Shown: piece after piece, positions 4,863 to 57,233 of the stretch
Layout of the letters: each line of letters begins with the position of its first letter
How positions within the stretch are numbered: the first letter of the stretch is position 1
Source of the DNA: Nemertoderma westbladi
Taxonomy: Eukaryota; Animalia; Xenacoelomorpha
Reading direction: 5' to 3'
DNA: 57,233 nucleotides
Assembly: GCA_032718475.1 (NCBI GenBank)
Contig: JAUCBJ010007024.1
Location: forward strand, 1-57,233
Position numbers and translations under genes: made by a program
The notes under the pieces: model-generated
Told to the model about the DNA's origin: nothing
The model's database searches: none
Seen by the model: the letters and a program-made list of their open reading frames with translations, nothing else

Positions 4863-5562
4863 TGTTGCGGGATAAATCCATTAATAATGTAATTATTGAT
4901 AAGGGCATGCATGACGGGCTTTAGCTTGTTTGGATTGAAGCGAAGGGACCATCAGAGAGGGATATTGGTGTAAATTGTTGGGAGAGCGTCTGGTTATTGA
5001 GTGTGAGAGAGAGAGAGAGAGAGAGGGAATCTGTATTGAGCTGTGATGGTTAGATTGCAATGGCGCGAGGTGAGTGGTAATTAAAAGGTCGGGTGAAGGG
5101 CAATGTAATAGTAAGCTGAGGGGGGAACCTGTTACCGTGTAGAAACAAGCCAATAAAAATAGCTTCCTGGTTGACACGGTAGGGAGTGCCTTATTGCTAG
5201 AAAAGTTTGGTTAACCAATCAGGATGCAATATAGATAGATAGAAAAATCCAATCTTGTTTTATATACGAACAATATATTATTTATGATGTAAATTAATTA
5301 GGACAGAATCCCCGAGAGGATACAATGATTTGTAATGGGGCCCTTTGGCAAAAAAACCGATTAGCATCCTGTTTGGTTTCCCATAATTAAATATATTATT
5401 TACCGGTGAATTATTAGTACATATTATTAACTGAAATAACTAAAAAGGAAGAAGAAGATAAACTATCATTTTTCATAGTACGTAAATTATGGGACGAGCC
5501 TTACGGGCGGGTTTTCGGTCAAACCCATATACCGTGTAACCACTGAGGGGATTCCAGGAACA
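4863..5562 (+). repeat. E1 5' LTR (700 bp)
   Basis: TGTTGCGGG...CCAGGAACA, repeated at a constant offset of 7884. Confidence 0.97.
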
Positions 5563-5672
5563 AAATTACAAATCAATTATCCAAAAAAGAAGATGACCAA
5601 TAATTAACTAAGCTTAAGCCCTCCTTAATGAAAATAATGAAGAACAAATCGAGAGTAAATTAAAGTCGAAAT

Positions 5673-10394: not shown

Positions 10395-10412
10395 CAAGGA
10401 AAACCTGTTAAA

Positions 10413-11672: not shown

Positions 11673-12746
11673 AAAACGAGACTGCATTGACTCGAAATAT
11701 AAGGGGGAGGATTACCGTTATAAAATTATATTTCTCACAATCGAAAATAGGTGTAAAATAAATAAATAAAAAAAAAAAAATAAAATAAAATAAAAAATAA
11801 ATAAATAAATCGTTTCGGAAAATATTATAATAATATGAAATATAGTAGTTAAATATAATAAAATTAAAATCGATTTATGTTTATTATCCAAAAATATTAA
11901 AAATATCAGTGTGTGTGATGATTATATGAGTGTATGATTGTGGTAAATGACGACGTGTTAAAGACCATTGACAACTGAAGAGGTGCACCTGACAAACACT
12001 GACGAACTTATGAATTTCTTGTCCAAATTGACAGGTAAGGATACGCGGGATATAGAGAGTTACGTAAGACCCATATTTTGTGGCTTCGTTGAGATACGAA
12101 GGGAACCTACACAATGTCTAGAAAAAGGGAGACGTCTCATTAGACATTGCGTGGGGGGGCAATACTTTACAGTAACCCACTGAAGGTATACGGGGGGAGC
12201 GGCGGTGACTCCTTCTAGTAGCCATTGAAACATATAACACTTGACATGGCAGGACTTAAATGACGAATAATGACGAAAAAATAGTTTAATTGATCGGATA
12301 AAAAATATAAATTGATTATAGCAAAAAGAATAAACCATGAAAATAAATAATTCTGGAATAATCACATAGAAATGTAACAATAATATGATTATGATAACAT
12401 AAAATTGAAATATATCGTTTAAGATGTATGTACTTAGGGATTTAATTTATGAAGATTTATAAGGAAAATTACTTTATACTGTAATAAGAAGTGAAAAATG
12501 TTATTTTTACTTTTTTTTTAAAGTAAATTAAAGTTTTTTTTTTTTTTTTCTTGGAAAATCAGACACATGTTAAAAGAGAATGAAGAGGTTTATTGAACCC
12601 GCTAAGACCCAGATACCACAAATCTGGTAGAGATCTGTTTTTTTTTTGGTTTATACATACATTCTAAGGATACATTACCTACAAAGGGATTTATGCCGCA
12701 AATTTATTCAGAAAGATTAGCAAGCTTATCTTTCTGGGGGGGAGTT

Positions 12747-13446
12747 TGTTGCGGGATAAATCCATTAATAATGTAATTATTGATAAGGGCATGCATGACG
12801 GGCTTTAGCTTGTTTGGATTGAAGCGAAGGGACCATCAGAGAGGGATATTGGTGTAAATTGTTGGGAGAGCGTCTGGTTATTGAGTGTGAGAGAGAGAGA
12901 GAGAGAGAGGGAATCTGTATTGAGCTGTGATGGTTAGATTGCAATGGCGCGAGGTGAGTGGTAATTAAAAGGTCGGGTGAAGGGCAATGTAATAGTAAGC
13001 TGAGGGGGGAACCTGTTACCGTGTAGAAACAAGCCAATAAAAATAGCTTCCTGGTTGACACGGTAGGGAGTGCCTTATTGCTAGAAAAGTTTGGTTAACC
13101 AATCAGGATGCAATATAGATAGATAGAAAAATCCAATCTTGTTTTATATACGAACAATATATTATTTATGATGTAAATTAATTAGGACAGAATCCCCGAG
13201 AGGATACAATGATTTGTAATGGGGCCCTTTGGCAAAAAAACCGATTAGCATCCTGTTTGGTTTCCCATAATTAAATATATTATTTACCGGTGAATTATTA
13301 GTACATATTATTAACTGAAATAACTAAAAAGGAAGAAGAAGATAAACTATCATTTTTCATAGTACGTAAATTATGGGACGAGCCTTACGGGCGGGTTTTC
13401 GGTCAAACCCATATACCGTGTAACCACTGAGGGGATTCCAGGAACA
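12747..13446 (+). repeat. E1 3' LTR (700 bp)
   Basis: No differences from the 5' LTR seen by eye. Followed by the TSD GTCTA. Confidence 0.97.
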
Positions 13447-32433: not shown

Positions 32434-32609
32434 AATTAAGCTACATAAAATTAACTCTATTGAACTATGTGAAGCGTACTTCTTCTAGAGATATCTTTTA
32501 TATCCGTGTAATATCGTGGTGCCTATTCCACCATATTGGTCTGTAGTTTAGGTCTACAACCCATATGGGCGTTTATTATTTGTTTCGGTATTATATACCG
32601 AGTGGGGAG

Positions 32610-33116
32610 TGTACTATTCTTGGAGAATAGTTAGTTAGTCATCAAACTAGTACCCATTTAGAGTGTTTAACATTAGCTAGTTATTTTCTGCAGTACCTAT
32701 TTAGAGTGTTTTACAACATTACCTAGTTATTTCTACAGTACCTATTTAGAGTGTTTTACATTATTAGCTAGAGATTTCTACAGTACCTATTGGGAGTGTT
32801 TATGTTTGTTAGAGGTTTACATACCGGTACCCTATGACTGGGGAGACGGCTTTGGTGTAAGATACAAACTCGGTTGAAGGTAATGTTTTTTGAAACAGGT
32901 GTTAACCATAGTACATAGATTACAGTTATCTGTTGATGGTACCGGTAAAGCGCAGCAGTATGGTGTGTTATATTATAAAGAACAATGACTCCCGGTCTGC
33001 CGGTACCGCATGTTTATTATACAGCCTTATTCGATAGATTTCATTTTCCATCTCCACTCTCGGTTGACCGCCCAGGTTCGGGGACCGACGCCATTCATTC
33101 ATATTAGGTGCGCCGT
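32610..33116 (+). repeat. E2 middle (3') LTR, interrupted about 18 bp before its end by E3
   Basis: Matches the E2 LTR up to GGTGCGCCGT, after which E3 sequence begins. Confidence 0.92.
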
Positions 33117-33244
33117 GTATAGAATTATATTCCCTAAATGCCGTGGATTTTCAAAATTTTATTTTTATTCGAATTAACTTTGTAAAGATTGCTTTGAGTT
33201 CTCATTCGTATTTGTTCTATCATTTGAAAGCCTATTGGTCAAGT

Positions 33245-33331
33245 GGTTCAGTAGCTCAGTCGGTAGAGCGTTGGAAATTATATGTGTAGTAGGTATTGAG
33301 TTCGAATCCTAGTAAGTGCGAATTATTTTTT
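33245..33331 (+). ncRNA. tRNA-derived Pol III cassette in the E3 LTR (not a functional tRNA)
   Basis: A box/D-arm TAGCTCAGTCGGTAGAGC, B box GAGTTCGAATCC and a T6 terminator. The acceptor and anticodon stems do not pair. Confidence 0.8.
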
Positions 33332-33384
33332 GTGCAGAATTTCAACTCATTTAAATTGACCGCTACAAATTAATTGCATTTGTC

Positions 33385-33663
33385 TGTACCAATGAGACTG
33401 TAGTTATTTGATTGTAACCAATGTCGTGCAAGTTATACATTAGCTGGACCAATAGCTATCTTTAAAACCTTGTTAGAACCTATAGAACAATCGAGAATTT
33501 TCTCGATTGATTGCAGCACAAATTTAGTATATAAAGGTGCGATTTGTTCATTAGTTATCACTCTCTCATTACTCTAACCATATTCGTATCTCTGAGTTAT
33601 CTAATATTTGTTTATTCTGTCATTAGTATTCAGATTACATTTTGTGTTATTATCTGCAATAAA
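33385..33663 (+). promoter_or_regulatory. E3 LTR Pol II promoter and polyadenylation signal
   Basis: Three CCAAT boxes spaced about 30 bp apart (about 33389, 33417 and 33449), TATATAAA at 33528-33535 and AATAAA at 33658-33663. Confidence 0.6.
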
Positions 33664-35902
33664 TTCAGAAATACCGCTATCTGCCTTTCTTTTTACCATG
33701 GATTCACTACGGTGAACAAACCTAAGGGACAGGATGGCCGGCTAGAGATCGGGCCGCAGCAATGAACGGGAACATCACAGGAATGTAGACGAGAGACAAC
33801 CCGCAATACCATCTTGAGTTATTCGCCCATCGCCTGAAAGGTTAGACAGCGTTCGACGCCTTGCTACCTAAGAGTAAGACCAAAGATCAAAAAGGTAGAA
33901 GTAGTGACACGCTGTGAGCCTAAAATTACATCTTAGGGACTGTACTGTCTTGATTCAGGAAAAAACCACAGTAGACCTTCACATTCCTACGGGGGGAGAG
34001 AGAGAGCGCAGGCAGATACTAGTACGCAGATAGGACGTAGGCACACCGGTACGAAGCATACAAATTGGTAGGGTGCAGCAAACTGTACGCCTAACTCTTG
34101 CTAAGTACAGGTGTGTGTGCGACTATTTGTAGTACAACGGTGTCCATTGCATTAGAACTTGTAGGCTAGGGGGGTTGCTGTGTTTTCACCTGAATTGGGA
34201 TTGTACCGTTCAGGCGGTAGGGCAGTTTACAACTAGGCGCAAATAAATTGAGGCTATTAGGGATACTAACATCTACCGTGTCCCCGCCAACGCCCTAATA
34301 GGAAGTTACCCGGACTACCTGGGTGACTAAAATTCTAGATAGGAGCCAGGATAGCTATTAGTAACAGTACGCCTACAGTAGTAAACTAACACATCTCTTC
34401 TTAGTATCAGGGACCTGGTACCTAAAATTGCCGAATTCTGGGCGTAGCATTAACCCTATGCCTGAATTTGAGTCCTGGAAATACGCAAGAGGGGAAGGAA
34501 CCTTATCATTCGTGAGTATTGGACCTACAAGTTACAAAATTAGAATATTCGTAAAATGCACACCGTACCCAGTAATTATATATGTGAAGGAGCAAAACTG
34601 TTTTTGACCGTTCAGAATTAACACACGCGCGTTAGAAATTATTTACACCTCAAAATATATAAAATTAACTTTTGTCCGTACTGTGCTTTGCCCGCTAGTT
34701 AGACATCTCCAAATCTCTGCCTGTGTACCTAGCTAGCGTCTCTTCGCCCAAACCATATAAATCACACCGCGGCAAAGTGTACGAGCCCCTTAGTCCGTCA
34801 GTGAGTCAGCCTGATTTTAGGATTCGCTGCGCGGGATTTTGTTTTATCGAAGTTTGTCTGCTCGTAGACTGTTTTCTGCCTCACCGGTTATAAGAGATCG
34901 ATACTGCAATATATTCGCTTACTTAGAGTTTACTGTTTTGGTGAGAAGGTCGGATTTATGATTTGATTTACAAACTTTACAGTAAGATATTGCAGGTATT
35001 GTTACCGTCTCTTCCAATAGTAGGAATGTGATTATTTTAACATATTTCCTAGAATAGTAGGAATGTGTGATTATTTTAACATATTTCCTAGAATAGTAGG
35101 AATGTGTTTTACTGAACTACGGTTCGGTAGGACTAAAGTTATTTGAAAATTTTGTATTTTGAGGTAAAAATTTATATTTGATTAGCTAAGTGCTAATTTT
35201 TGAAATAAAATTTGATTTGAACCGCGTGTAAAATATTTTTGGAATTGAATACCGGTGTTTAAAAGGGTTTAAATACCATATTGTACCGGTACAAAATTTT
35301 CGTAAAGTAAAACCTAACTCTTTTGTTTTTCAGGATTCAGAACTCATTTCTAGACTGTAACGGGAGCAAGACCGTGTTTAGCAAGTTTGGGAGATAGATA
35401 ACCCAACAACTTTGGTTGGGAAAATCGCGTTTCGTCCGCAACGTTAAAAACGGAAAGGTTCACGTCCGGTTTGTATCTGGGAATCTGTTTTTCTGGAGAA
35501 TTATTGGAGTGGGTGAGTTCGAAAAGTTGCATAAATAAGTTAGGCATTACCGTATTAGTTAAAATTATTGTGGGTTCCACTGTCTCAAGTATTTATGCAT
35601 TCCGTATGATTTCTTTGTTCATTGCTGAATTAGTCCGTATTATTGTATTTAATTTACCTTTTGATAACGCATATCGTTATCCGATTTATTTGTTATAAAA
35701 TTGGCCGCTAGGCTAATTTTATTATATACTTATTCCGTGACATTTATTTGCTGTAAAATTGGCCGTTTAGGCTAATTTTATCCATCTGCTATAAAATCGG
35801 CCGGTAGGCTAATTTTATATGACTGTAATTAGTACCGTTTAGATATAAATACGGTAAACTCGATACTTTGACACTCACTTTACTTGACTTACAACTACCG
35901 AA

Positions 35903-38900
35903 ATGAGTGACAAACAAGACTATACGAAGAATACACAAACCGACTATGACTCATGTGACGCGGATAAGTCAGCAGCGGAAGAACAACAGGGGAAGACTCG
36001 CGAGCCTACCGAACCTACACCGTGTGCGTCACCAGTACATCCAACGGGAGTACCGGATGCCGTAGTACGAGGCGACGGCAGGACCGAGGACTTTCTAACT
36101 GTTCCGCAACCTAGATACAGGGAAACGGAGATGGTAAGTTCAGTAGGAAGCCAGGAGAGCGTAGTTAGAAGCGTCGGCGGTTACATGGCGCATATTACCA
36201 GGAGTATTGGAGAAGGCCAACGCATATTAGACGAGTTAACCGCTCCGATGTCTCGGTTCGAGTTCTACACTCTACAGGTGAGAGTACAGAGTAAAGTATA
36301 TAAGTCCGTAGATAACCTAATTGGTCTACAAGATCTAGCTAGACAGAGACAGGATATGGACACTCAGCTTAGAATCCTCGAGAAACTAATGATCACTAGA
36401 GAGAAACTGATTCAGTTTAAGTCGACGATTAGGCAGATACAACAGGAACAAGCGGACCAGTTATTAGGTGAGTCGGTTTCGGACGAATTATTGCAACCCG
36501 AGGAAGAACAGGAACTGTACAGGCTAGATGGACAATTGAAACACCTGACGGATCACTTACGCATGTGCGGTGAGGACGTCGGAGATTGGGAAACCGTGCC
36601 GGAGGCTACGAGGGAAACTTCACTCGCACAAATCGAACTGGCACCGGGAACACTAAATCAATCACTGGTGAGTATTCGCAGCGAAATTGGCGAGGTGAGT
36701 ATGGCTACGTCAGAAATTGCTCGACAACAGCAGCTCTACAGACAACAACAGGAGATGGAGGAACAAACTGAACTGCTAATGGCACAAGCAGCAGTACAAG
36801 AAGAGAAACTACGTGTTGCGAATGTTGCAAGAATCTCTCATCTGCAAGAACAAGCCGAGTTGGAAGCAGCCGAGATGGAAAGATTAGAGTTGGACATTGC
36901 ACAACAGGCAGCGGCAGCGGCAGCGGCAGCGTCCGAGTTAGAGCGAAAAAGGTTAGCTTCAGAAGCGAGAACCGAAATGAAAAAACGGCAAATAAAGGCT
37001 CAATCAGCTATACGACAAGCGGAGTTCGAGGCGCAACAACAACAGACGGAACAACGCGAGAAGGAAGTTAAACTTCATTTCGAACTCGGGAAGAAGGCGA
37101 GAGAATTAGCCAACGCGAAGGAAGATCTGGATCTACAAGCCCGCGATCGATCGATGAGATCTCGTGACGGACATGATTTGGACCAGTTAGAGGTAAGGCA
37201 CCGTCAAATTCAGGAACGAATGAAGGAAGGAAGTGTAGGGGCACCTGGGCGAGAAAGACAACTAGTAAAGGACTTATGTCAAAGATTCCCTCGAGTAACT
37301 CCTATGTTTGCACCAGTTACGATTAAGGAACCTATTTCGATTGCTGGTAGTAGTAATATTTCTCCTATCCATGGTGCGACGGAACACAGGTTTGTTATTC
37401 CGGACAAGTTTACACCGCCAAGAGCAACGTCGTCGCCTATTCCGAAAGTCAAGGTAAGTAACCCGCCGATTACAGATCGTAGTAGTTTGTTGACCAGACC
37501 TGCACTACTGACGACTAAACAGGTGAGTTCACCTTCGACACCAAAACTCGTTACGCACTACACGTACCCAATGACGTTTAGGCCTACAAAGCCTTTGGAT
37601 TCAAACGCTGTAGTCCGACCACCGGTTCAGTTTACATCGCAATCTACGACTTCGAGGAAGACTTGTGAGCCTACCGAACAACGGAGACCAGTGGATACGC
37701 GACCGTTCAACCAGTTTACATCGCAATCTACGACTTCGAGGAAGACTTGTGAGCCTACCGAACAACGGAAACCAGTAGACGATGTTCCGAGACGGAATGT
37801 TAGGATTCGAACGGCGGAACGGACTCGAGCACGTCGACCACCGTATCCAGGTGACAGTAGTACTTCGAGCGAGTCGGATTACCCGGAACGCGAGGTATTT
37901 AGAACAGGAGCGGCCGACAAATGTAAACGTGAGCGTTCGGATAATTCATTTATCGACAATCCTCCACAGAATACGCCAACACAAAAGGCGTTACAACCAA
38001 CAGACGCGATCAGTACACAACAATTCGCCGACATTCTGCGACCAGTTGTCAATAAGTTGGCCCAGATTGAGGAACGCTTGGAGGAAGTTGAAACCGATAG
38101 TTCGAGGAACACCGAACTTGAACACAATAGCCACCCGAAGGATCCGCAAAGACCAATACCTTCGAGAAACACTTCTTATCAAGAAAAAGCGCCAAGAAGG
38201 GAGAACATCAACCAGGTTGCCAACCAAGGACGCGAAACTTTGAACGTGGCCGAGGAAATAGCGAAATTCGCAGCTAGACAAGGATTGCCGGTACAACAAC
38301 CACTGAAGTTTTCCGGTAGCTCAAAACACTGGCATACTTTCATAGACTATATCGAATCTCAGATCGCCGTGTGCGCCTTTACATCACGGGAGAAGTTTAA
38401 TTACCTGCTTCAAACGTTGTCAGGAGAACCTAAACGTTTGGCGGAGACCTTCGTTGGTGTACCGGACGCTTTCGAACTAGCGTACGATCGTTTGACCTCG
38501 ATCTACGGAGGCACAGTCAGTATGGCCAGGTCAGTAATAGAGGAACTCGGTAAGGGAGGGGCTATCACTAAACCCGTCGACTTATTAAAACTGGCCGACG
38601 AGATAAAGAACGCTATCACTACTTTAAGATCCATTGGACAACTCGACTACGGGAATACCCCTACAGTCCTATTAAAGATCATAGGACGACTCCACCATCG
38701 ACTTCGTCGGGAGTGGAGAAAGATCGAATACCAGCGGGAAGAGCGGGGTGGATTCTTAAAACTAGAGGATGTGTACCTTTTGATATCCAGGGAAGCAGTT
38801 GTAGAAACACGATCCAACTACACTGACCAGCACATCGTAGCAGAAGGGATCACCTTGCCATCCTCCAACCGACAAAAACCCCAGACAACATCCACTAAGA

Positions 38901-41900
38901 CGGCCACTTACGCCACACCGACGGAATCACGACAATTCTCGGACGGTAGTAGGGTATCTGCGCCCATTGGGACAAAACAGACGAGACAACAACTCAGTAC
39001 CGACTTCAGCGGCTGCCAATACTGCGAGCATTTAGGCAAGCGGTATATCGGTCACAAGTTGCGAGGTTGTCGACAATTTCGCGAGTTAAACTCGGAAGAA
39101 CGACGGCTGCAAATACGGCCATTGGACTCTTGTAGGCGGTGTACGCGACACGGACACATCCGTAAAGATTGCCCAAATACCGACACTTGTCCATCCTGTG
39201 GACGCAACCACGACGGTCTGCTCCACACAGACAGCCACACGCCGACAAAACGCTTCGCCAGGGAACACCCGGAAGCAGCAGCGAGATGTGATGCGGCCTA
39301 CAGAAAACGAGAATCGAAAACGACTCCAACCTTCGTGACCCATATTGAGGATTGCTTCTCAGAACAATCCGGATCGTCGGACGAAGAATCAGAAGACGAC
39401 GACGTATATTCGGATGGAGATGAACAGCCATCGATCGCGCTTCTGACTACTGACCAACTGAAGGGATTCAGTGTAATTCCGATTAAGATTACTGGCACAA
39501 AGGGAAGCAAGAGAATCTACGCGATTCTAGATTCAGCCTCATCTCACAGCTACGTGGATGAAAAGATAGCTGACGTAGTGACGGATCTTAAACAAGGTAA
39601 GCGCGTCAGTTATACCGTAAGTAGTATGCACGGACAGCGTGCAATACCAGTGACACGAGTTAAGTTGGACTTAGACTCTCTTCTTCCAAAATCGCAACAC
39701 AGCGAGAGGGAGAGGTCTTTGTTACCCTTTAAAGATCTAACCTTTGCGGCCACGAAGGACTTTAGTAACCTACTAGGTCCAGTGCCGGAACAATCTCTAG
39801 AGGACCGTAAGTATTTCAGACACCTTGGTGTACCCGAATGTCCTGTCAATTATAGATCGGTAGCCATGCTGATCGGGACAGACCAATTCAACCTACATCA
39901 GGTGTGGGAAACCAGACCATCGGCAGTTGTAGCGGGAAACGCATACGCCTGTAGAACGCCGATAGGGTGGTATACTCGAGCGCCTGTGCGCACATTAGAC
40001 ATAAGTGACGAGGAAGATGTACAAAGTACATGTAGTTTATTAACTACAAATTCAATTCATTCCTTCTCACACGACGTGGACCATACTACCTTACAGACAA
40101 AACACAACAGACGTGTAACTAGTATGATAAGTCACAAGGAGCAGCTAATTCACCAGGTGAGTTTAGAACTTGGGAAGAAGGCGAGTCAGCCAGAGATTCC
40201 ATCGACGACAGATGATAACGCCGGAAGACTTGCGAGCCTTTCTACACCAGACATATCGCCAGACGGTCAACCAGACACGTTACTAGACAGCCAACCAGAC
40301 ATTTTGCCAGACATATCACAAAATGTTCTACCAGACACTAGTGACATATTGACAAACAGTAAAGCCGCAGTTTCTCTATTGGAGCGGCCTTCTATTGACA
40401 AACAACCAGATACGTTACCAGACGTATCGCCAGACACATTACTAGACAGTCGACTAGACACTAGTAACGTACTGACAAATAGTGAAGCCGCTGTTTCCCT
40501 ATTGGAGCGGCCTTGTATTGACAAACTACCAATTTTGACACACTTGAGCAACCATAAGCACGGTGAAACCTCATGTATTACAGATGTGGGTAGTACCTAC
40601 GCTAATGTAAATACAGGTGTTACTCTGCGCTCAAGAGACATACCGAACTTGCAACCTACGGTGAGACCTGGGATTAATGTCGGCAGAAAAATAAGTTTAC
40701 CGAAACCTGCTGACCCCATAGAGTTCAAACCACCATTAACGATCGACTTACAAAGTACCGACAATCAAGGTAAGAAGACGAAGAAGGACAAATTACTTGT
40801 AGACCCGGACGGATCAACAGTCAACAAGGGAATACTTACCGGCGGACCCGTGGGCCCTTCTAGTAATTCAAAACCTTCCAAAATCTCCATTGACTTACCT
40901 GATGACGTCACAAATACTCACGTCGACCGGATTGTAAACTTAACAGACTCTTGGTCAAACGCTTGCCGAAAGTTAGCGTGGATTGTACGTTTTGTACAAT
41001 ACGTTAAAGGCAAACGCGACTTTACACGTCGACTTACATTGGCTGAGATTGACAGGTGTGAGATTAAATTAATTCGCCATTACCAACTGCGATATTTCGC
41101 GCGCGAATTCACATCTATAAATCAAGGTCAACCAATCAAGTCGTCACCAATACTGAGTTGGAGTCCGATTATTTATAATGGCTTAATTTGTCATAAATCT
41201 CGGCTTCAAAACATTGACTTTAACACAAACTTTAGGTACCCAATAATAATACCGCAACATCACGAACTACAACGTGCAATGATACTGGACGCACATTTAC
41301 ATCTGAAACACGCTGGAAGACACCACTGTCTTTCCTACTTACGTACAAGATTTGTATTAATTAGACCCAGTAAAGCGTTAAGTTCAGTGACACGTACGTG
41401 TATTATTTGTAAAAAGGTACATTCTAGAATAGGTACCCAAGAAATGAGTGAACTACCACAAGCACGACTTCAAGCATTCAGACCACCTTTTACAGAGACT
41501 GGAATTGATTGCTTTGGTCCCATACATACGAAACGTGGACGTATACTAGTAAAACGCTGGGGACTGATTTTCACATGTATGTCCAGTAGGGCAGTTCACA
41601 TTGAACGTGTGATGGATCTTTCCACCAACGCGTTTATACTAGCACTGCGGCGATTTATCGCTAGACGCGGACTAGTGAAATGCTTGTACTCAGACCAAGG
41701 GACAAACTTTGTTGGTGCTCGAAATGAGATTGCTAGAGCCTTTAAGAAATTAGATCATGATCAAATCTCGAACGAACTACAACCTCACAAGATTGTTTGG
41801 AAGTTTAATCCTCCAGATAGTCCATGGAGAGGCGGAGTCTGGGAGAGATTGATTAGATCTATAAAGACGGCAATGGCAAAGGTCATTCCAGTAAACCACA

Positions 41901-42430
41901 TATTGACAGACGACCAACTGACAACACTGTTTGTTGAAATCGAGGCAATACTAAATACTAGACCAATAGTATTAGTACCCGATGACAAACAATCTCAGTT
42001 TGCTTTGACACCGGCACACCTGCTTATGCAGGCACCGTCTACATTAATACCTATTTCAATTCCAACAGAAAGCGATAGCTATGGTAGAAAAGCGTGGAAA
42101 ATCACGCAACTACTAGCTAACAAATTCTGGGAAATATGGCAAAACCATTATTTGCCCTCTATTTCTGCCAGAACAAACTGGTACAATAACACCCGCGCAT
42201 TAAAGCCGGGAGATCACGTGCTGTTAGCAGAAGTGAATCTAAAAAGACGCTTCTGGATAACAGGTGTAATTCTAGCCACACATCCATCTATGGATGGAGT
42301 GACAAGAACTGTGACAGTACGGACAATTGACGGTCGTACAGTAGACAGACCGACTCAACGTCTCGTACTTCTTGAAGAGACTCGTAACGAGTCTGGAGAC
42401 TACAAATCTCCACCTAATACTAGTAAATAA
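35903..42430 (+). CDS. E3 Gag-protease-integrase polyprotein (2175 aa), with no RT or RNase H
   Basis: Coiled-coil N-terminus, gag FSGSSKHW..F and YLLQTLSGEP, three Cys/His knuckles, protease YAILDSAS..TPIGW, a low-complexity spacer of about 310 aa, then H..LKHAG..CIIC, GIDCFGP, SDQGTNF and GVWERLIRS. No YxDD, QGP, DAS or PRLEL motifs. Confidence 0.93.
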   Translation: MSDKQDYTKNTQTDYDSCDADKSAAEEQQGKTREPTEPTPCASPVHPTGVPDAVVRGDGRTEDFLTVPQPRYRETEMVSSVGSQESVVRSVGGYMAHITRSIGEGQRILDELTAPMSRFEFYTLQVRVQSKVYKSVDNLIGLQDLARQRQDMDTQLRILEKLMITREKLIQFKSTIRQIQQEQADQLLGESVSDELLQPEEEQELYRLDGQLKHLTDHLRMCGEDVGDWETVPEATRETSLAQIELAPGTLNQSLVSIRSEIGEVSMATSEIARQQQLYRQQQEMEEQTELLMAQAAVQEEKLRVANVARISHLQEQAELEAAEMERLELDIAQQAAAAAAAASELERKRLASEARTEMKKRQIKAQSAIRQAEFEAQQQQTEQREKEVKLHFELGKKARELANAKEDLDLQARDRSMRSRDGHDLDQLEVRHRQIQERMKEGSVGAPGRERQLVKDLCQRFPRVTPMFAPVTIKEPISIAGSSNISPIHGATEHRFVIPDKFTPPRATSSPIPKVKVSNPPITDRSSLLTRPALLTTKQVSSPSTPKLVTHYTYPMTFRPTKPLDSNAVVRPPVQFTSQSTTSRKTCEPTEQRRPVDTRPFNQFTSQSTTSRKTCEPTEQRKPVDDVPRRNVRIRTAERTRARRPPYPGDSSTSSESDYPEREVFRTGAADKCKRERSDNSFIDNPPQNTPTQKALQPTDAISTQQFADILRPVVNKLAQIEERLEEVETDSSRNTELEHNSHPKDPQRPIPSRNTSYQEKAPRRENINQVANQGRETLNVAEEIAKFAARQGLPVQQPLKFSGSSKHWHTFIDYIESQIAVCAFTSREKFNYLLQTLSGEPKRLAETFVGVPDAFELAYDRLTSIYGGTVSMARSVIEELGKGGAITKPVDLLKLADEIKNAITTLRSIGQLDYGNTPTVLLKIIGRLHHRLRREWRKIEYQREERGGFLKLEDVYLLISREAVVETRSNYTDQHIVAEGITLPSSNRQKPQTTSTKTATYATPTESRQFSDGSRVSAPIGTKQTRQQLSTDFSGCQYCEHLGKRYIGHKLRGCRQFRELNSEERRLQIRPLDSCRRCTRHGHIRKDCPNTDTCPSCGRNHDGLLHTDSHTPTKRFAREHPEAAARCDAAYRKRESKTTPTFVTHIEDCFSEQSGSSDEESEDDDVYSDGDEQPSIALLTTDQLKGFSVIPIKITGTKGSKRIYAILDSASSHSYVDEKIADVVTDLKQGKRVSYTVSSMHGQRAIPVTRVKLDLDSLLPKSQHSERERSLLPFKDLTFAATKDFSNLLGPVPEQSLEDRKYFRHLGVPECPVNYRSVAMLIGTDQFNLHQVWETRPSAVVAGNAYACRTPIGWYTRAPVRTLDISDEEDVQSTCSLLTTNSIHSFSHDVDHTTLQTKHNRRVTSMISHKEQLIHQVSLELGKKASQPEIPSTTDDNAGRLASLSTPDISPDGQPDTLLDSQPDILPDISQNVLPDTSDILTNSKAAVSLLERPSIDKQPDTLPDVSPDTLLDSRLDTSNVLTNSEAAVSLLERPCIDKLPILTHLSNHKHGETSCITDVGSTYANVNTGVTLRSRDIPNLQPTVRPGINVGRKISLPKPADPIEFKPPLTIDLQSTDNQGKKTKKDKLLVDPDGSTVNKGILTGGPVGPSSNSKPSKISIDLPDDVTNTHVDRIVNLTDSWSNACRKLAWIVRFVQYVKGKRDFTRRLTLAEIDRCEIKLIRHYQLRYFAREFTSINQGQPIKSSPILSWSPIIYNGLICHKSRLQNIDFNTNFRYPIIIPQHHELQRAMILDAHLHLKHAGRHHCLSYLRTRFVLIRPSKALSSVTRTCIICKKVHSRIGTQEMSELPQARLQAFRPPFTETGIDCFGPIHTKRGRILVKRWGLIFTCMSSRAVHIERVMDLSTNAFILALRRFIARRGLVKCLYSDQGTNFVGARNEIARAFKKLDHDQISNELQPHKIVWKFNPPDSPWRGGVWERLIRSIKTAMAKVIPVNHILTDDQLTTLFVEIEAILNTRPIVLVPDDKQSQFALTPAHLLMQAPSTLIPISIPTESDSYGRKAWKITQLLANKFWEIWQNHYLPSISARTNWYNNTRALKPGDHVLLAEVNLKRRFWITGVILATHPSMDGVTRTVTVRTIDGRTVDRPTQRLVLLEETRNESGDYKSPPNTSK

Positions 42431-43092
42431 TTAGGAGTTTACAAATAGATTTCCACGTACCTGTACACTGTAGTAAGGACAGCGGTAGAATTCCATTGTC
42501 TTTATATGTGAACATTGAGGGTAGTACCCTTATGTGTCACATAGGAGCGGGATTTGTAGGTATAAGAAATGGAATTCTACTTGGAACTCACAATATTGAG
42601 ACATTTTCGAAATTTTAGACAATCCATTTGGATTTGAAAAATTTTTAAAATTTTCTCCAGTGAATAGATTTCAGGGTACAGTCGGGTGGAACTTAAAATT
42701 AGAGAAACAAGAGAGGAAGACTTGCGAGCCTTTCTTAAAATTTTAATTAAATTTTACACGGTCTTGTTTCAATAAGTTACGTCAAATAATAGACTCCCCT
42801 ATATTTATTACTAATTCTTGACTGCTTATTTTCTGATAATAGTTTGGGATCAAAAAGTGAGTATTTTAGACTCACAGCCAGTTTAGCCCAAATTCGTTTT
42901 TTATTTCGGCAAAAAATTTTAGATAAGAAGCAGCGTGTCATTAAAGAAACCTTAGATCTTAGGCTATGGGTAGGAGGTTAGAGCGTTGTCGAGCCAAAAG
43001 GGCAGACGAAACTCTCACGTCTCCTCACAACTAACTACAAACTCTGTTGTATTCCCTCTAGTAGCAATGATTATGTAACTACACCTCTAATT

Positions 43093-44830
43093 ATGGAGAA
43101 AGGGATACAAGGAGAGCCGAGATGGGGATATGATATCCAAGAGGAGGCAGCAGCGCCATTCGAAAGATTTGGAGCCAAGGACTACACTATATTCGGTATA
43201 AAGGAATTATCGGAAAGTACAGCGAAACTCGCAAAGACTAAATATGACAACCCTTCTACAACTCCGACGCTCAGTGTAATGCCTTTACTCGAGCAGGATT
43301 TAGTATATTTCGAGACGTGTATCTTCGCTGTGCGGGATCTCTTATCGAAAGACCATCTATGTTTACATTGTTACCCTATGAAGGAGAACGTATCGTGGAG
43401 ATTACGGATGAATCACGGCAGACGCGCGCGCCTATCGGTCACCTTGGTGATGATTTCGAAGTAACTACTACGATCGCCGACGATCCTTTAGAGGAACTTC
43501 TTGAGATAAAAAGGAACCTCCCGAAGAAATCTCAGACGGAGATTCGACAACTTGAAGCAACAGATGATATAGTTTGTATACAACCTTCAGAAACCTACCA
43601 ACCCATAGACCCAGATGATTACGATTATAGTGTGGGAGGAAGCGCTCGACCGATTGGAGATCTTATATACGAACGAGTGTGGTACCCTGCCAATACGATG
43701 TGTAGTAAATGTGGCGTCGCTGGACATCATATGACAAAGTGCAGTGGAAAGCACATTACTACGACTCAGCTAATCTGTGGATGGTGTGGGGATCAAGGGT
43801 CTCATACCTTTTATACTTGCTGGAGATTTATGGCTCAATGTACTTACTGCAATATAAAGGGCATCGAGCATCTGAATGCCAACTAAGATATATACCTTAT
43901 GAACACGAATCTGTAAAACTCGTGAGGAAATTATTTGATGAGTGGGAAGATTTAGCCGACGAACATGTATCGGCACAAAGAAGACGGTTTCCGATGAGGG
44001 CGCATCTTGGATTTTGGGCGGTAAATCCCCAGACGATGATGTCGGAAGGATATATCTCCGCTATGCCCCAATATGACGAACTTATCGAGGTAGTCGATAT
44101 TTTGCCCCACGACAGCGGATTTCGAGTAGTGCGCGAGTATCTACTACAGATTCACCCGGATAACAAAAACACGTGGAATTTTCAGAAAGTCGTTAATCGC
44201 ATTACTTATGGTGAATTCGATCGTTTCCGAACTGAAAAATGGAATAAAGGAGCTTGGTTAACCGTCGCATGGGCGTACCGAGCCGCGTTTTACCATAAAC
44301 GTATACGAGCGAGCGTATTCGAGGAAGAAGAGGTCCTAGAGGCGACAAATATACCAGCCACTCCGGTTGCGCCGTCTGCACGTCACCCTCGGGAGGACGG
44401 ACAGGGTAGGATCATACGGGTCCAGAAAGTGGGCCAACAGTTAAAGAAGTCTATTAATATAGAAGAACGCAGGGGAGTTGAGCCGACCATTCGAGTTACT
44501 CGGGATACGGTATCGCTTCCTAGAGAACCAGTAGGAGGATCGGGACATACACCAGCTGATCAACAGGGGGCGCAAGCTACTCTTGGGTCTGCGTCGTCCG
44601 CTTCTCGCGCGTTCCCAGACGTTCTACCAACTGTAGTGACAACTGATCGGTCACGAGGAATCGGTCGAGGTTTTGGGATGCTAAATAGACGAATTTGCGA
44701 GGAAATGGTCGCACCGTCTCTCAACGTCCAAACGAAACCAGTGACTCGCCCCACGAGTCCCATATCGCGAGCAAAGTCACCTGTGCGCAGTTTTCGAGGA
44801 CGCGGCAGGGCTCGATCAACTAAGCGATAA
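43093..44830 (+). CDS. E3 accessory ORF of about 580 aa if two -1 frameshifts are bridged; three CCHC zinc knuckles and an RG-rich tail
   Basis: Three overlapping ORFs in successive -1 frames. Knuckles CSKCGVAGHHMTKC, CGWCGDQGSHTFYTC and CTYCNIK/GHRASEC, the third spanning a frameshift. An upstream CTAAC..polypyrimidine..TAG acceptor lies at 43031-43061. Confidence 0.7.
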
Positions 44831-45032
44831 AAGGGAGGGCAAGGGTGGACGGAAGACTCGTGAGCCTTTCTTATGATTTTGTGATTTATTTGAATTTATA
44901 TTTATATTTGTGTTTATTCCGAACTTATGCAATTTGTATTGTTCCGAATTTATGAAATTTAGAAAGTTTATATTTAGAAGGAACTTATATTTGAAAGATG
45001 ATATTATTTAGATTTATGTTTCATATTTGAGA

Positions 45033-45099
45033 TGCAAAGGAGTTTATATTATTCTAAACTTGTGCTGCACAAGTTTAGAATAATATAAACTCCTTTGCA
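45033..45099. repeat. Perfect 67-bp palindrome (33-bp arms, 1-nt centre)
   Basis: TGCAAAGGAGTTTATATTATTCTAAACTTGTGC-T-GCACAAGTTTAGAATAATATAAACTCCTTTGCA. Confidence 0.97.
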
Positions 45100-45517
45100 G
45101 TTTATATCTATATTTAGTAAAGATTTATATTTGTAAGAATTTATATTTTATATTTGTGATTATTCCGAACTTATGCAATTTATATTGTTCCGAATACTAT
45201 GCAATTTATATCTTATAAGCAGTATTTGTATTTACAGTGAAATAGAAATAATTGTTTGAATTTATGCAATATTGAAATGCAATAGATTTATATTGGTGAA
45301 TTTAATTTAGATTTATATTGTACTTACTTAGTAAAGCCTTAAATACGTAAAGTTTGAATTTGTAATTATTTTGTATCGAATCATTATGTAGAAAGGAAGT
45401 ATTGTTTGAAATTTAATTTGTAAATATGTAAGTACGCCCTAAGTATTCTATAGTTTGATTGATTATTGGTGAAAACCGTATATTTTATGCACGATAATAT
45501 CCTGTTTTCATGGAGCG

Positions 45518-47420
45518 GTATAGAATTATATTCCCTAAATGCCGTGGATTTTCAAAATTTTATTTTTATTCGAATTAACTTTGTAAAGATTGCTTTGAGT
45601 TCTCATTCGTATTTGTTCTATCATTTGAAAGACTATTGGTCAAGTGGTTCAGTAGCTCAGTCGGTAGAGCGTTGGAAATTATATGTGTAGTAGGTATTGA
45701 GTTCGAATCCTAGTAAGTGCGAATTATTTTTTGTGCAGAATTTCAACTCATTTAAATTGACCGCTACAAATTAATTGCATTTGTCTGTACCAATGAGACT
45801 GTAGTTATTTGATTGTAACCAATGTCGTGCAAGTTATATATTAGCTGGACCAATAGCTATCTTTAAAACCTTGTTAGAACCTATAGAACAATCGAGAATT
45901 TTCTCGATTGATTGCAGCACAAATTTAGTATATAAAGGTGCGATTTGTTCATTAGTTATCACTCTCTCATTACTCTAACCATATTCGTATCTCTGAGTTA
46001 TCTAATATTTGTTTATTCTGTCATTAGTATTCAGATTACATTTTGTGTTATTATCTGCAATAAATTCAGAAATACCGCTATCTGCCTTTCTTTTTACCAT
46101 GGATTCACTACGGTGAACAAACCTAAGGGACAGGATGGCCGGCTAGAGATCGGGCCGCAGCAATGAACGGGAACATCACAGGAATGTAGACGAGAGACAA
46201 CCCGCAATACCATCTTGAGTTATTCGCCCATCGCCTGAAAGGTTAGACAGCGTTCGACGCCTTGCTACCTAAGAGTAAGACCAAAGATCAAAAAGGTAGA
46301 AGTAGTGACACGCTGTGAGCCTAAAATTACATCTTAGGGACTGTACTGTCTTGATTCAGGAAAAAACCACAGTAGACCTTCACATTCCTACGGGGGGAGA
46401 GAGAGAGCGCAGGCAGATACTAGTACGCAGATAGGACGTAGGCACACCGGTACGAAGCATACAAATTGGTAGGGTGCAGCAAACTGTACGCCTAACTCTT
46501 GCTAAGTACAGGTGTGTGTGCGACTATTTGTAGTACAACGGTGTCCATTGCATTAGAACTTGTAGGCTAGGGGGGTTGCTGTGTTTTCACCTGAATTGGG
46601 ATTGTACCGTTCAGGCGGTAGGGCAGTTTACAACTAGGCGCAAATAAATTGAGGCTATTAGGGATACTAACATCTACCGTGTCCCCGCCAACGCCCTAAT
46701 AGGAAGTTACCCGGACTACCTGGGTGACTAAAATTCTAGATAGGAGCCAGGATAGCTATTAGTAACAGTACGCCTACAGTAGTAAACTAACACATCTCTT
46801 CTTAGTATCAGGGACCTGGTACCTAAAATTGCCGAATTCTGGGCGTAGCATTAACCCTATGCCTGAATTTGAGTCCTGGAAATACGCAAGAGGGGAAGGA
46901 ACCTTATCATTCGTGAGTATTGGACCTACAAGTTACAAAATTAGAATATTCGTAAAATGCACACCGTACCCAGTAATTATATATGTGAAGGAGCAAAACT
47001 GTTTTTGACCGTTCAGAATTAACACACGCGCGTTAGAAATTATTTACACCTCAAAATATATAAAATTAACTTTTGTCCGTACTGTGCTTTGCCCGCTAGT
47101 TAGACATCTCCAAATCTCTGCCTGTGTACCTAGCTAGCGTCTCTTCGCCCAAACCATATAAATCACACCGCGGCAAAGTGTACGAGCCCCTTAGTCCGTC
47201 AGTGAGTCAGCCTGATTTTAGGATTCGCTGCGCGGGATTTTGTTTTATCGAAGTTTGTCTGCTCGTAGACTGTTTTCTGCCTCACCGGTTATAAGAGATC
47301 GATACTGCAATATATTCGCTTACTTAGAGTTTACTGTTTTGGTGAGAAGGTCGGATTTATGATTTGATTTACAAACTTTACAGTAAGATATTGCAGGTAT
47401 TGTTACCGTCTCTTCCAATA
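45518..47420 (+). repeat. E3 3' LTR (possibly truncated at its right end)
   Basis: A near-identical copy of 33117-35019 that ends ...TTCCAATA and joins the E2 3' UTR with no TSD. Confidence 0.9.
45646..45732 (+). ncRNA. tRNA-derived Pol III cassette, 3' LTR copy
   Basis: Same A box, B box and T6 as 33245-33331. Confidence 0.8.
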
Positions 47421-48037
47421 TGGTGCCTATTCCACCATATTGGTCTGTAGTTTAGGTCTACAACCCATATGGGCGTTTCTTATTTGTTTCGGTATTATAT
47501 ACCGAGTGGGGAGTGTACTATTCTTGGAGAATAGTTAGTTAGTCATCAAACTAGTACCCATTTAGAGTGTTTAACATTAGCTAGTTATTTCTACAGTACC
47601 TATTTAGAGTGTCTTACAACATTAGCTAGTTATTTCTACAGTACCTATTTAGAGTGTTTTACATTATTAGCTAGAGATTTCTACAGTACCTATTGGGAGT
47701 GTTTATGTTTGTTAGAGGTTTACATACCGGTACCCTATGACTGGGGAGACGGCTTTGGTGTAAGATACAAACTCGGTTGAAGGAAATGTTTTTTAAAACA
47801 GGTGTTAACCATAGTACATAGATTACAGTTATCTGTTGATGGTACCGGTAAAGCGCAGCAGTATGGTGTGTTATATTATAAAGAACAATGACTCCCGGTC
47901 TGCCGGTACCGCATGTTTATTATACAGCCTTATTCGATAGATTTCATTTTCCATCTCCACTCTCGGTTGACCGCCCAGGTTCGGGGACCGACGCCATTCA
48001 TTCATATTAGGTGCGCCGTCGCCGCGACCCCAGGATA
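47421..48037 (+). mobile_element. Second E2-family 3' end (3' UTR, PPT and a complete 524-bp LTR at 47514-48037)
   Basis: Repeats 32517-33116 with several substitutions and continues to CCCCAGGATA. Confidence 0.92.
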
Positions 48038-51077: not shown

Positions 51078-52390
51078 ATGTAATGTAATGTAATGTAATG
51101 TAATTGCACTCCAAATAATTGCACCGACAAATAAAATAATTAATTATTTAAAATTAATCTTAATGACATACATATTCACAAAATGAAATTGAATTAGACC
51201 TTTAATTAAACAATTATATGTATGGAGGGAGAAGATAACCCAGGCAATGTTGCACTTACGAGCGTATCTCTATTGGAATTAAGTAAAAATATTGCAAACT
51301 AAAAAAATAAAATGGTAAAACACGGTCAGTCATTATGAACAGAGAAAATATAAAAAAAATAAAAATCAAAATCAAATCAAAATACGAGGCGGGGTATAAT
51401 GTGTGCATATTTAAACAAAATGACACAAGTGACTAAAATCAATATGACGTATATGGCAATTAAAAATATACAAATTACGTGCATTAACGGCATCTGAGGG
51501 CAAGGAATTCCACACGGATACTATACGGCTGGCAAAACGATTTCTGACAACGACTAGCCTGCTAGGCTGTGCAAACAGTTTCCTGTTATGGCCTCGCAAA
51601 CCTTGCCGTTGCACATGCGAGAAAAAATCGTTAAAATGAAGGTCAATGTTATTGTGACAAATATTATAAACCATACGGATATCAAAAATAATTCGCCTAA
51701 CTTCTAATGGTTGGAGTTTCAAGTGTATTAATCTATTAGAGTAACTGTTATCTATGTGTGTTAACTGACATCTTGAAAACAATCGTCTGGTGAAATATCG
51801 TTGGACGCGCTCAACCAATTTTATATTAAAGATTTGGTGAGGAGACCAAACCACAGTACAATACTCTAACAGTGGGCGAACATACGCCTTATAAGCCGTA
51901 ATAAGTACGTTGACATTAGAAGTGTGGAAGCACCTAAATAATATATTGCACATTTTATACGCCTTGGATACTTGTTGGCTGCAGTATTTGCTGAAACGCA
52001 GATTTTTGGTAACGATAATACCTAGGTCCTTACAACTCTCCTTGAGTTCTAGAATAGAACCGTTGAGAGTGTACTCACTCGGTGTGCGTGTACCAAGGTG
52101 AAGTACATGACATTTGTGAGCAGCGACATTGAGCTGCCAGGTTTTACTCCAACTGGCTAATCTATCCAACGCATTTTGAATGTTTGCCGGATTATTACTG
52201 TTTCCATATAATTTTAAATCGTCAGCAAATAGTTTGCAACCTACATTTGTAAATTCCGAAGGCAAATCGTTTACAAAAACTAGGAACAAAATCGGCCCCA
52301 AGACGCTTCCTTGGGGTGTTCCTGATTTGACGTCAACATAATCTGAGTATTTGTATCCAACTAAAACACGTTGACTACGATTAGCTAAGC
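51078..52390 (-). mobile_element. 5'-truncated CR1-group LINE with an (ATTAC)n tail
   Basis: RT motifs GTPQGSVLGP, FADDLKLY, KDLGI, YVRPLLEY and RGHN. The 3' UTR ends in (TGTAA)5 on the + strand. Confidence 0.92.
51411..52390 (-). CDS. CR1-like ORF2 C-terminal RT fragment (frame intact, 5'-truncated)
   Basis: An uninterrupted frame runs from RSQRVLVG to the stop codon. Confidence 0.85.
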
Positions 52391-52701
52391 GATTACAGGC
52401 TGACAGGTGTATAAACACAACCTGACATGACAACAGCTTCCATTAGACTGTTAGATGTAGTCTCAGACCAGACCACAGGCCAGCAGGCTGACAGACTCGT
52501 TGGCTACAGTCTGACAGTTGACAGTAGGCCTACCGCGCTACCGGTACTGTAATAGGCTACTACAGTAATAACTACCTCAGTACTGCGGCTGCGGGTATTG
52601 TTACTTTGAGGACCGTCAGACCGTCCCTTAAAACACTTACCGGTATATATATTTATCAGTTTATTTATGTGTTTATTATTATGTAATTTATTTATTATGT
52701 G

Positions 52702-55081: not shown

Positions 55082-55772
55082 AACCAAAGAACACAGGTTA
55101 TAGTCTTATTTTTGCAACCGGCTGATGGTTGGCCTACATACAGACCTACTGACCTACCAACCAGCCTATGGCTGTATGATACGGTAGCACTCTGCCTGTC
55201 TGCCGCTACTTAATGCAGTATTGACTTAGCTGATTCGGACATCGTATTGCTATGTATGGCCTATTTAATATCTAACCTAACTGCCTAACCAAAATACTAA
55301 ATCGCACTACCGATACCGAAGCACATACGGTAAGAACCCTACTGCCCTATAGGCCTAAGGTATAGCATGTATAGGATATAAAATATTTTTGTCTTTTTCT
55401 GCTTTTTGGGTAGGCCTAAGTTTTTTGGGTAATTCCAAATGTATTGTACAAATCTATTTTGGAGGACTAGAAATTAGCTTAATTTGTTTAGGCCTATTTT
55501 TATATTCTACAAATTAACGTGGCCTGGGCTGCTGCTGTGCTGGGCATGTGTGTTCGGGTGTTCCCTACTGATGACTGACCTTCTCAGCTACTGTTTACCG
55601 ATTACTGGTACCGGTACCCGTATACTGGTATATGATACTGGCCTATTTATAAATTTCCAATTTAATAGACAGATAGAGATTGAACATATGTACAAAATTA
55701 GGCCTACAACTGTAAAATGCTGATGCAGTTAGGACCTCAGCTAACATTCTAGGATAGATTGATAATCAGATA

Positions 55773-56802
55773 ATGGCAGCTGAAAAGGTGGAAATATCGG
55801 AAAGTTTATTTCCTGATTCATCCGTTAGCACGGACGACCGACCGTTGATGGATTCCTCTGAGACGAACAAACTCACGCAGTGTAGCGGATCGCATGATGT
55901 CCGCCAGAATCACGCCCGTTCCCAGACGTACGCGGGGGCCACGGATTCCGCTCCCAGGACTCGTCGGACTCCCCACATATCCACGGGATCCGATCCCGCC
56001 ACGGTTACCCCAGTCGTGGGAGAGCGTCGGCCCAGTCTACAGGAGAGGTTCTCTTTCCTCGATAAATTACTTCATCCTTGGAAGTGGAGGAGGAAGAAAA
56101 AAAGTAAAACTTTCGAAGAGAAACAAATGTCATTGGAGCGGAAGATTAGCGTTCGTGCAACTCGCGACGATTTGGTTAAAAAGGGAGTTCTGAGACCGGA
56201 GGAAGTTATTAGTGAGGATAACTCCCTCCCGAGTGACTGTAACGGGAAGAGTCCCACCGTGGGGGACACCCGTCTTACGGGCGTCCCGGAAACAGCCTGG
56301 ACCGGGGGCCAGCTGAACCACGCGTCTAAGAACGTCTCCTCCGGTGATAAATCCCCTCGGGGCGTTACCGGCCAAGGGAAAGGGGTCGGACGGACCGCTA
56401 AAGGGAACACGGTGCCATCCTCGCGAACAGCCACCTCCCGCGCCCCCCTGGACGCGGCGGCCACCCCCCGCCCCCTGAGCATCGGCCCTCCTCCCCGGAG
56501 TAACACCGGTCCAGCGGCCATCTCGCTGGGAGCCCTGATCCGCAGTCAGAGTCTCCCGGTTGCCAACTACCTGGGCGCTCGGGAGGCGACCCTGCAGCAC
56601 TCCCAGGAGGAGGCGCTCCCCGAGGAGCCGGACTCGCCCCCGCCCCCCTCGGTTCCGCCGCCTCCCATGGAGTACAACCCCCCGGAAGCCCCCTCAACCG
56701 ACCCCAGTAAGCGCTACTCCGGTAGCTACCCGGTCCCCGGAGATGGGCGGGTTCGTGTGCTGCTTCTACCGCAGTCGGACGCCCAGAAGTGGGAAACTCA
56801 AG
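55773..56802 (+). CDS. PHACTR: Phosphatase and actin regulator, first coding exon (the gene continues beyond the window)
   Basis: F..L..LLHPWKWRRKKKS..F....SLERKISVRATRDDLVKKGVL is the Phactr N-terminal NLS plus RPEL1, followed by a Pro-rich linker. Acceptor CTAACATTCTAG ends at 55752 and donor G|GTAAGT starts at 56803. Confidence 0.9.
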
Positions 56803-57233
56803 GTAAGTAGAATCCGACTAAATGTAGGTTAATCCGTAATCAGTACAGTAACCAACATTCCACAATCTTTGTTGCTTTGCATTGTTGGTTCCGTATGCGA
56901 TAAAGGATATTACTCGATATGATGTGCGGTGCAAATAATTTCGGGTACCAGTAATTCGGGATTATTTATCACAATTTTTTGTCATAATGAGGCCACCGCC
57001 TAAACATTCTTCTACATCTGTAAAAAAATAACACCAAATATTCACTTAATTCATAATGTTGCAGACGAATCGACTTGTGGATTGGTATTTGCTCCATAAC
57101 ATTGTTTGGTAGTTAACAAATAAATATAAATATATTTAATACACCACACGTTTCGAATATATTATTCGAAGATATTGGGATAGTAACAGAACCAGAACAA
57201 CCCACACAGCTAAAGAGTAATGTTAATTTTCAT

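Follow-up and report, generated by a model that had tools for sequence, protein, structure and literature searches.

The locus analysed here raises the question of what kind of protein is encoded by an extra gene in the env position of a BEL/Pao retrotransposon, and whether this gene is functional. To our knowledge, wherever a BEL/Pao element has been found to carry an additional gene, it codes for an envelope protein. The window (the whole 57,233-nt stretch of DNA that was analysed) comprises three BEL/Pao elements, one of which, E3, carries the gene of interest at 43093–44830 on the + strand, 3′ of the integrase and starting 660 bp past the polyprotein stop. Together, the results presented below support the view that it is a real, non-Env, family-wide accessory gene.

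Judged from the order of its predicted domains (DUF1759 Gag with Cys-His boxes, protease motif, H2C2 integrase, DUF5641), E3 is a BEL/Pao element. Its polyprotein gave 1195 BEL-type matches at E≤1e-40, the best of them 36–41% identical; the nearest relatives listed, 36–41% identical in the integrase, come mainly from fish and aquatic invertebrates where they are named. Between protease and integrase, neither a YxDD (YVDD) motif nor a match to PF05380 or RVT was found. A profile built from 40 full-length relatives matched E3 at positions 244–880 and 1493–1999 only, and the RT and RNase H positions (880–1493) were absent from E3 in all six frames, a lack that had been overlooked in a preliminary description of this DNA. 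The linker found in their place (Table 1) has no Pfam match. Because RT and RNase H are absent from the polyprotein, E3 is a non-autonomous BEL/Pao derivative. With LTRs 99.9% alike, this copy is young.

A clean loss of the RT–RNase H block was seen in three of 120 relatives among the matches listed, and these three RT-less BEL proteins were not sisters of E3 in an integrase tree of 52 sequences (about every third of 123 rows). RT loss therefore appears, at the level of predicted proteins, to recur in BEL polyproteins. In the three (P0034; P0041, a cluster of 27; and P0099), which lie on separate branches, protease is joined in frame to integrase without RT–RNase H. Another element of the window, E1 (4863–13446), has identical 700-bp LTRs with TG...CA ends and a 5-bp target duplication; its frame stops right past YVDD and resumes at the integrase, the remaining RT and RNase H being deleted.

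The LTR ends of E3 are atypical, lacking TG...CA, and no short target duplication was found for this element. E3 is flanked by a 600-bp direct repeat (32517–33116 and 47421–48019) that corresponds to the 3′ end of E2, with LTR and primer-site-like bases. The seven differences between the repeats exceed the two between the LTRs of E3, and the arrangement could result from recombination between two insertions or from an assembly join. The U3 part of the E3 LTR (33245–33312 and 45646–45713) contains tRNA-like motifs that follow the A-box and B-box consensus. ARAGORN and Rfam made no call on the LTR, these stretches included; a Pol III promoter or an insulator is possible there. Further downstream lie a LINE-type RT fragment (51411–52442, − strand) and, at 55758–56810 on the + strand, one exon belonging to a host gene with RPEL repeats.

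Table 1. Coordinates of E3 and of the features of its extra gene, as positions in the window.
Feature	Position	Strand	Remarks
E3	33117–47420	+	LTR pair and internal polyprotein frame
E3 5′ LTR, 1903 bp	33117–35019	+	99.9% identity to 45518–47420, 2 differences
Candidate self-primer, 12 nt in LTR	33979–33990	+	reverse complement of the 12 bases after the 5′ LTR
E3 primer-site position	35020–35031	+	pairs with 33979–33990; duplex −19.7 kcal/mol
Candidate leader exon	35313–35521	+	acceptor 35333, donor 35513; predicted by motif scan
E3 polyprotein, intact, 2175 aa	35903–42430	+	Gag, protease, linker, integrase; RT/RNase H absent
Low-complexity linker, ~280 aa (residues 1393–1670)	40079–40912	+	replaces ~610 RT/RNase H profile positions
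Candidate acceptor (branch point, pyrimidine tract, AG)	43031–43061	+	arises in 0.086 of intergenic shuffles
Segment 1	43093–43248	+	first ATG in good context; frame open to 43464
First frame-break zone	43248–43350	+	no stop in either frame; copies differ structurally at 43238–43390
Acidic region, likely disordered	43351–43700	+	internal ATG at 43359
Three CCHC knuckles, spacing 11 and 6 residues	43701–43879	+	third split by second break near 43855–43861
Trp/Tyr-rich orphan region, ~150 aa, folded-looking	43880–44350	+	no homolog; 5/5 polymorphic variants listed silent
Weak chromodomain look-alike	~44066–44254	+	Atlas 0.80–0.83; significance not reached
Basic tail, Pro/Ser/Arg-rich, terminal Arg cluster	44351–44830	+	stop 44828–44830
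E3 3′ LTR	45518–47420	+	pairs with 33117–35019

The preliminary description had reported three overlapping ORFs past the integrase with −1 offsets, and + strand frames with these successive offsets were indeed found at 42982–43464, 43248–43886 and 43709–44830. Segment 1 has a codon score of +7.9 in its own frame versus −8.0 and −6.1 in the others. The N-terminal part had been called acidic; this applies to 43350–43695 (24 D+E versus 11 K+R) and only weakly to 43093–43350 (14 versus 10). Two of the three knuckles claimed are intact in frame 2 (CX2CX4HX4C at 43701–43742 and CX2CX5HX4C at 43776–43820), while the third, which starts at 43839, is recovered as CX2CX4HX4C only when the second break is read across with an X. 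Among 3000 shuffles of the locus, a single knuckle occurred in four and an ORF of 322 aa in none. The globular-looking Trp/Tyr-rich region is present as described, as is the basic RG tail, with 29 K+R versus 12 D+E, five RG dipeptides and four SP/TP sites.

No segment of transmembrane strength was found, the best 19-residue hydropathy values being 1.19, 0.78 and 0.68. The same general hydropathy scan, which is not a dedicated predictor, revealed no signal peptide or membrane anchor of the kind seen in belpaovirus Env, and nothing resembling a fusion protein of class II or III was detected in Pfam, PDB sequences or sequence representatives. In agreement with the earlier claim, the predicted product is not an Env. 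CCHC knuckles bind single-stranded RNA; Arg-rich tails that contain SP sites are often phosphorylated and often target a protein to the nucleus. Because of its knuckles the product would bind RNA, and knuckles and basic tail together point to nuclear RNA binding as its likely property. Two loose NES-like matches were noted in the product, which has no clear export signal.

In order to compare this copy with others, contigs of four public runs (3445, 1205, 253 and 13 records) were aligned to 42400–45500. Their identity ranges from 99% to under 90%, with 184 contigs of run X1 below 90%, which indicates many related copies, and the extra gene was found in many of these in three DNA runs, so that its presence beyond the window copy, previously left as a point to check, is confirmed. 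The second join had been placed at 43856–43861. Here the contigs bear the description out: 51–73% of the depth, which does not equal copy number, carries an indel at 43861 relative to the window copy (59%, 51% and 73% in the three DNA runs), and an additional small indel was detected at 43855, within the same break (43855–43861). Most other copies are unbroken at this point. A programmed shift was considered for the second break and rejected, as the site offers only a non-canonical heptamer and most copies are unbroken there.

The first join, by contrast, was not recovered where it had been claimed (43348–43350): none of the best-supported 12 of 24 indel variants lies there, and one contig crosses 43281–43430 without a gap. 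A structural break is instead marked at 43248/43249, where the match of contigs from other copies begins or ends, so that the length of about 580 aa put forward earlier is only tentative. Three loose contig ends lie past 43248 and seven before 43249 (medians 18, 221 and 191 nt). Because these contigs run into other sequence, the data suggest that the window copy is without a segment at 43248/43249. Two deletion variants at this break (43238–43278 and 43249–43390) alter the length by multiples of three and keep the frame offset of the window copy. By codon usage, frame 1 is preferred up to 43248 and frame 2 from 43351 on, with no clear preference in the zone between (2.6 versus 0.3); the model behind these scores chose correctly in 49 of 63 test windows.

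It is conceivable, though rather unlikely, that a translational feature of the whole family (a programmed shift, a small intron or a restart at the ATG at 43359), rather than a lesion, accounts for the first offset, in which case the main product would be a knuckle-to-tail protein of ~490 aa. The ungapped contig and the absence of an indel at 43348–43350 among the best 12 of 24 variants agree with such a feature, as do the in-frame ATG and the 72 codons over which both frames are open. However, no slippery heptamer was found in the overlap, even the best candidates for an intron agree at just 5 of 9 donor positions, and the seven contigs before 43249 and three after 43248 that enter other sequence indicate a segment missing here. 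The extra gene is broken in the window copy; many copies may have the first break in common, so that the N-terminal part may be decaying in the E3 family.

Signs of selection were sought in the best-supported variants (40 of 121 substitutions, 28 of which fall in the gene, and 12 of 24 indels). Among these best 40 of 121 substitutions, 12 of the 20 polymorphic in the gene are silent versus 5.4 expected (P=0.002), and 14 of 28 versus 7.8 (P=0.01) when private ones are added; read in the two off-frames, the same variants give five and four silent changes, with four and three stops. Within the same best 40 of 121, silent changes amount to 2/2 in segment 1, 0/5 in segment 2 and 12/21 in segment 3, and all five polymorphic variants in the orphan region (43880–44350) are silent. 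A silent excess was therefore not found in the knuckle-bearing segment 2 (0/5 of these best 40 of 121 substitutions). The codon score of the knuckle segment, which is Cys/His-rich, favours another frame (−8.5 versus +7.9). Over the whole gene, the coding frame is favoured by codon usage in five of seven segments, tail included. Ten of the best 12 of 24 indels lie in the flanks, and the remaining two are the second break. The window copy has eight private changes in the 1.7-kb extra gene, six of them non-silent; these could come from a different individual or population than the runs rather than from relaxed selection.

These data bear on the proposal that the region is a captured or decaying fragment (of a LINE ORF1, a foreign gag or a host zinc-knuckle gene) carried as a functionless passenger. 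The preliminary description had named neutral evolution of a captured fragment, or absence from other copies, as outcomes that would contradict its reading; for the C-terminal two thirds of the gene neither holds, because of the silent excess and the presence of the gene in many copies. The two breaks in the window copy, the variable 5′ part among copies, the lack of silent excess in the knuckle segment and a weak match to zf-CCHC_4 (E 0.06–0.08, below the cut-off) would be expected of a passenger. The silent excess and the avoidance of indels are not, and no donor was found in the homolog searches described below. LINE ORF1 proteins of the Tx1/R1/I type carry an RRM or a coiled coil before their knuckles. 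No capsid, RRM or coiled-coil family match to the extra gene was obtained, with an N-terminal part that may be incomplete in the window copy. We consider a passenger origin very unlikely.

Relatives of the protein were then looked for at several levels. The region 43856–44398 gave no homolog at E≤0.01 among 78 candidates, and frame 2 none at E≤1 among 930 longer candidates in a weak search. A search of 1.84 billion representatives yielded no homolog, its sole match, to a 55-aa repeat protein (E 1.3e-4), being taken as chance; metagenome and viral contigs yielded none either. Matches among PDB sequences were beta-propeller repeats on a 16-residue motif and were rejected. Among 80 BEL integrase loci, 15 had at least 1.5 kb downstream and the extra gene was present in 0/15 (best E 0.057); ten downstream ORFs of BEL loci that were checked comprised seven BEL Gag restarts and three unrelated frames. 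A duplicate of the Pao Gag nucleocapsid was likewise rejected. The third finger of the Pao Gag triple box ends in His in the part of the published account available (PMC554778), and among 120 homologs this held without exception for those in which a triple box was matched (97 of 97), whereas the third knuckle of the extra gene ends in Cys and its best BLAST E is 0.43.

The only named lead concerns the orphan region. In both Atlas searches, the ten best named matches were all chromo or chromo-shadow clusters, with scores of 0.80–0.83; Atlas scores below 0.9 are leads only, since one third of shuffled proteins score likewise. On this basis 44066–44254 might be a divergent chromo or chromo-shadow domain without an aromatic cage, and the protein a chromatin-directed or anti-silencing factor that couples nascent element RNA to chromatin or acts as an HP1 decoy. 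The profile alignment is in register with chromodomain strands, and the available part of the work on VANC proteins provides a precedent for family-specific anti-silencing (PMC6719617). Nevertheless, Pfam gave no chromo match at E≤10, the hhalign alignment to a chromodomain had P=0.13, and 150 of 2000 shuffles (0.075) scored as high as or higher than the gene against a five-sequence chromo profile. Two AlphaFold models made from the single sequence were of low quality (pLDDT 35.6 and 54.5), the one of pLDDT 54.5 being all-helical, and Foldseek and VIA returned nothing meaningful on these low-confidence models (best E 6.2, best Z 5.0). We regard the chromatin proposal as distinctly unlikely; the likeness of this region to a chromodomain falls short of significance. 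No homolog or fold linking the product to export was found in these searches.

Since E3 lacks RT, its mode of priming was also considered. No TGG tRNA primer site was found after the 5′ LTR. The 12 nt at this position, at offset 0 from the LTR, are complementary to a stretch within it, which 2 of 941 control windows equalled. E1, in which no tRNA primer site was found either, has an 11-nt complement (5565–5575 with 5326–5336) at offset 2, equalled by 0 of 646 controls. In both elements the LTR stretch complementary to the primer site is followed by a G run, and a threefold repeat of the primer-site stretch is present in E3 (35016–35107). Predicted self-priming is defined, in the part of the source available, by at least 10 nt located 0–5 nt after the 5′ LTR and complementary to the LTR (PMC6317226); E3 and E1 both fall within this definition of Tf1-type self-priming as far as sequence goes. 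E3 in this respect resembles Tf1/sushi, Tcn1 and TAR, which, as that excerpt presents them (PMC6317226), differ from it in belonging to Gypsy or Copia and in encoding an RT themselves. The self-priming model for E3 is complicated by an AATAAA that precedes the candidate self-primer, at 33658.

This feature lends some weight to the idea that the extra gene encodes a second nucleocapsid-like chaperone, which would be packaged with the RNA and would anneal the self-primer or pass the RNA to a borrowed RT, an enzyme that an element devoid of RT has to recruit. Three knuckles and a basic tail are nucleocapsid-like, and in E3, devoid of RT, the 12-nt LTR complement stands in place of a tRNA site. 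Yet the Gag of E3 already has Cys-His boxes, E1 shares the primer feature but has no additional ORF of at least 100 aa between integrase and 3′ LTR, and the three RT-less BEL proteins found elsewhere are not sisters of E3. We regard the chaperone role as unlikely.

The remaining evidence concerns splicing. A branch point, a polypyrimidine tract and an AG had been noticed just upstream of the gene. The signals are present, and 8.6% of intergenic shuffles give the same; acceptor-type sites in E3 number three on the + strand versus two on the − strand, with 1.4 expected. The candidate acceptor is thus suggestive, weakly beyond chance. The reading that we tentatively favour is that the gene encodes a trans-acting accessory protein, made from a spliced RNA and acting in a CERV-like manner on unspliced element RNA. 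Lying 3′ of the polyprotein stop, the gene would need an RNA of its own, which could arise by splicing to 43061 from a donor in the leader, either the one at 35513 or one within the LTR. Any element that splices its transcripts also has to get unspliced RNA out of the nucleus. Unspliced E3 RNA would face nuclear retention because the leader carries splice-like signals, and a nuclear zinc-knuckle protein might bind this RNA and aid its export or stability. Acting in trans, it would allow copies with a broken gene, such as the window copy, to be copied with the help of intact ones, RT being supplied by another, autonomous family. The contrast between an intact 6.5-kb polyprotein frame and an extra gene with two lesions and eight private changes fits action in trans.

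A more elaborate version would have E3, as a successful BEL/Pao family, drop both RT and tRNA priming, keep Gag, protease and integrase in one frame and prime from LTR RNA, while a newly evolved trans-acting protein, by means of its knuckles, a divergent chromo-like domain and its basic tail, captures nascent RNA on chromatin and, evading silencing, channels it towards export and an RT borrowed from elsewhere. This combination is speculative and, in our view, improbable.

Non-Env extra ORFs are, as a kind, already known from the portions of the literature available (PMC5408684, PMC6317226, PMC10309623). Neither a BEL gene of this sort nor self-priming in a BEL element was found described in the literature searched, supplements and Repbase being outside its scope, and the protein family and its BEL/Pao host superfamily are apparently new within the searches named. 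If the favoured reading is true, a selected non-envelope zinc-knuckle gene extends Rev/CERV-like accessory control to BEL/Pao. E3 is itself an unusual host, without RT or a tRNA primer site and yet young and with many related copies, and it offers a testable case for RNA export and copying in a non-autonomous element and for the separation of cis and trans functions.

Among known systems, the belpaoviruses Tas, Cer7, Cer13 and Atlas share superfamily and gene slot with E3, but in the available descriptions their gene encodes a fusion glycoprotein of class II, and this has membrane segments, which the E3 product lacks (PMC554778, PMC9094657). The extra ORFs of rotifer and plant LTR elements likewise lie after pol, are restricted to one family and have heterogeneous origins; the rotifer ORF3 types named in the parts of these sources available are GDSL, DEDDy, coiled-coil and membrane proteins, the triple-knuckle type not being named among them, and the elements concerned are Gypsy or Copia whereas E3 is BEL/Pao (PMC5408684, PMC6317226). 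The comparison that bears most directly on the favoured reading is with CERV of the C. elegans element Cer1, as far as the excerpted account goes (PMC10309623). CERV is encoded by an env-position ORF without homologs, from a spliced mRNA; it is nuclear, has a Cys finger and a phosphosite, and is required for export of Cer1 genomic RNA. Like it, the E3 gene is a lineage-restricted non-Env ORF between pol and 3′ LTR whose product, of about 500 aa, has a Cys/His metal-binding motif and a candidate nuclear signal. The two differ in that the finger of CERV is of the C4 type and some of its exons are shared with gag, while the E3 gene encodes three knuckles of the CCHC type plus a basic tail, and in that Cer1 is Gypsy-type whereas the E3 gene, with splicing and function that are only predicted, resides in an RT-less BEL/Pao element (PMC10309623). 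With no sequence link found between them, CERV is likened to the E3 gene by description (PMC10309623).
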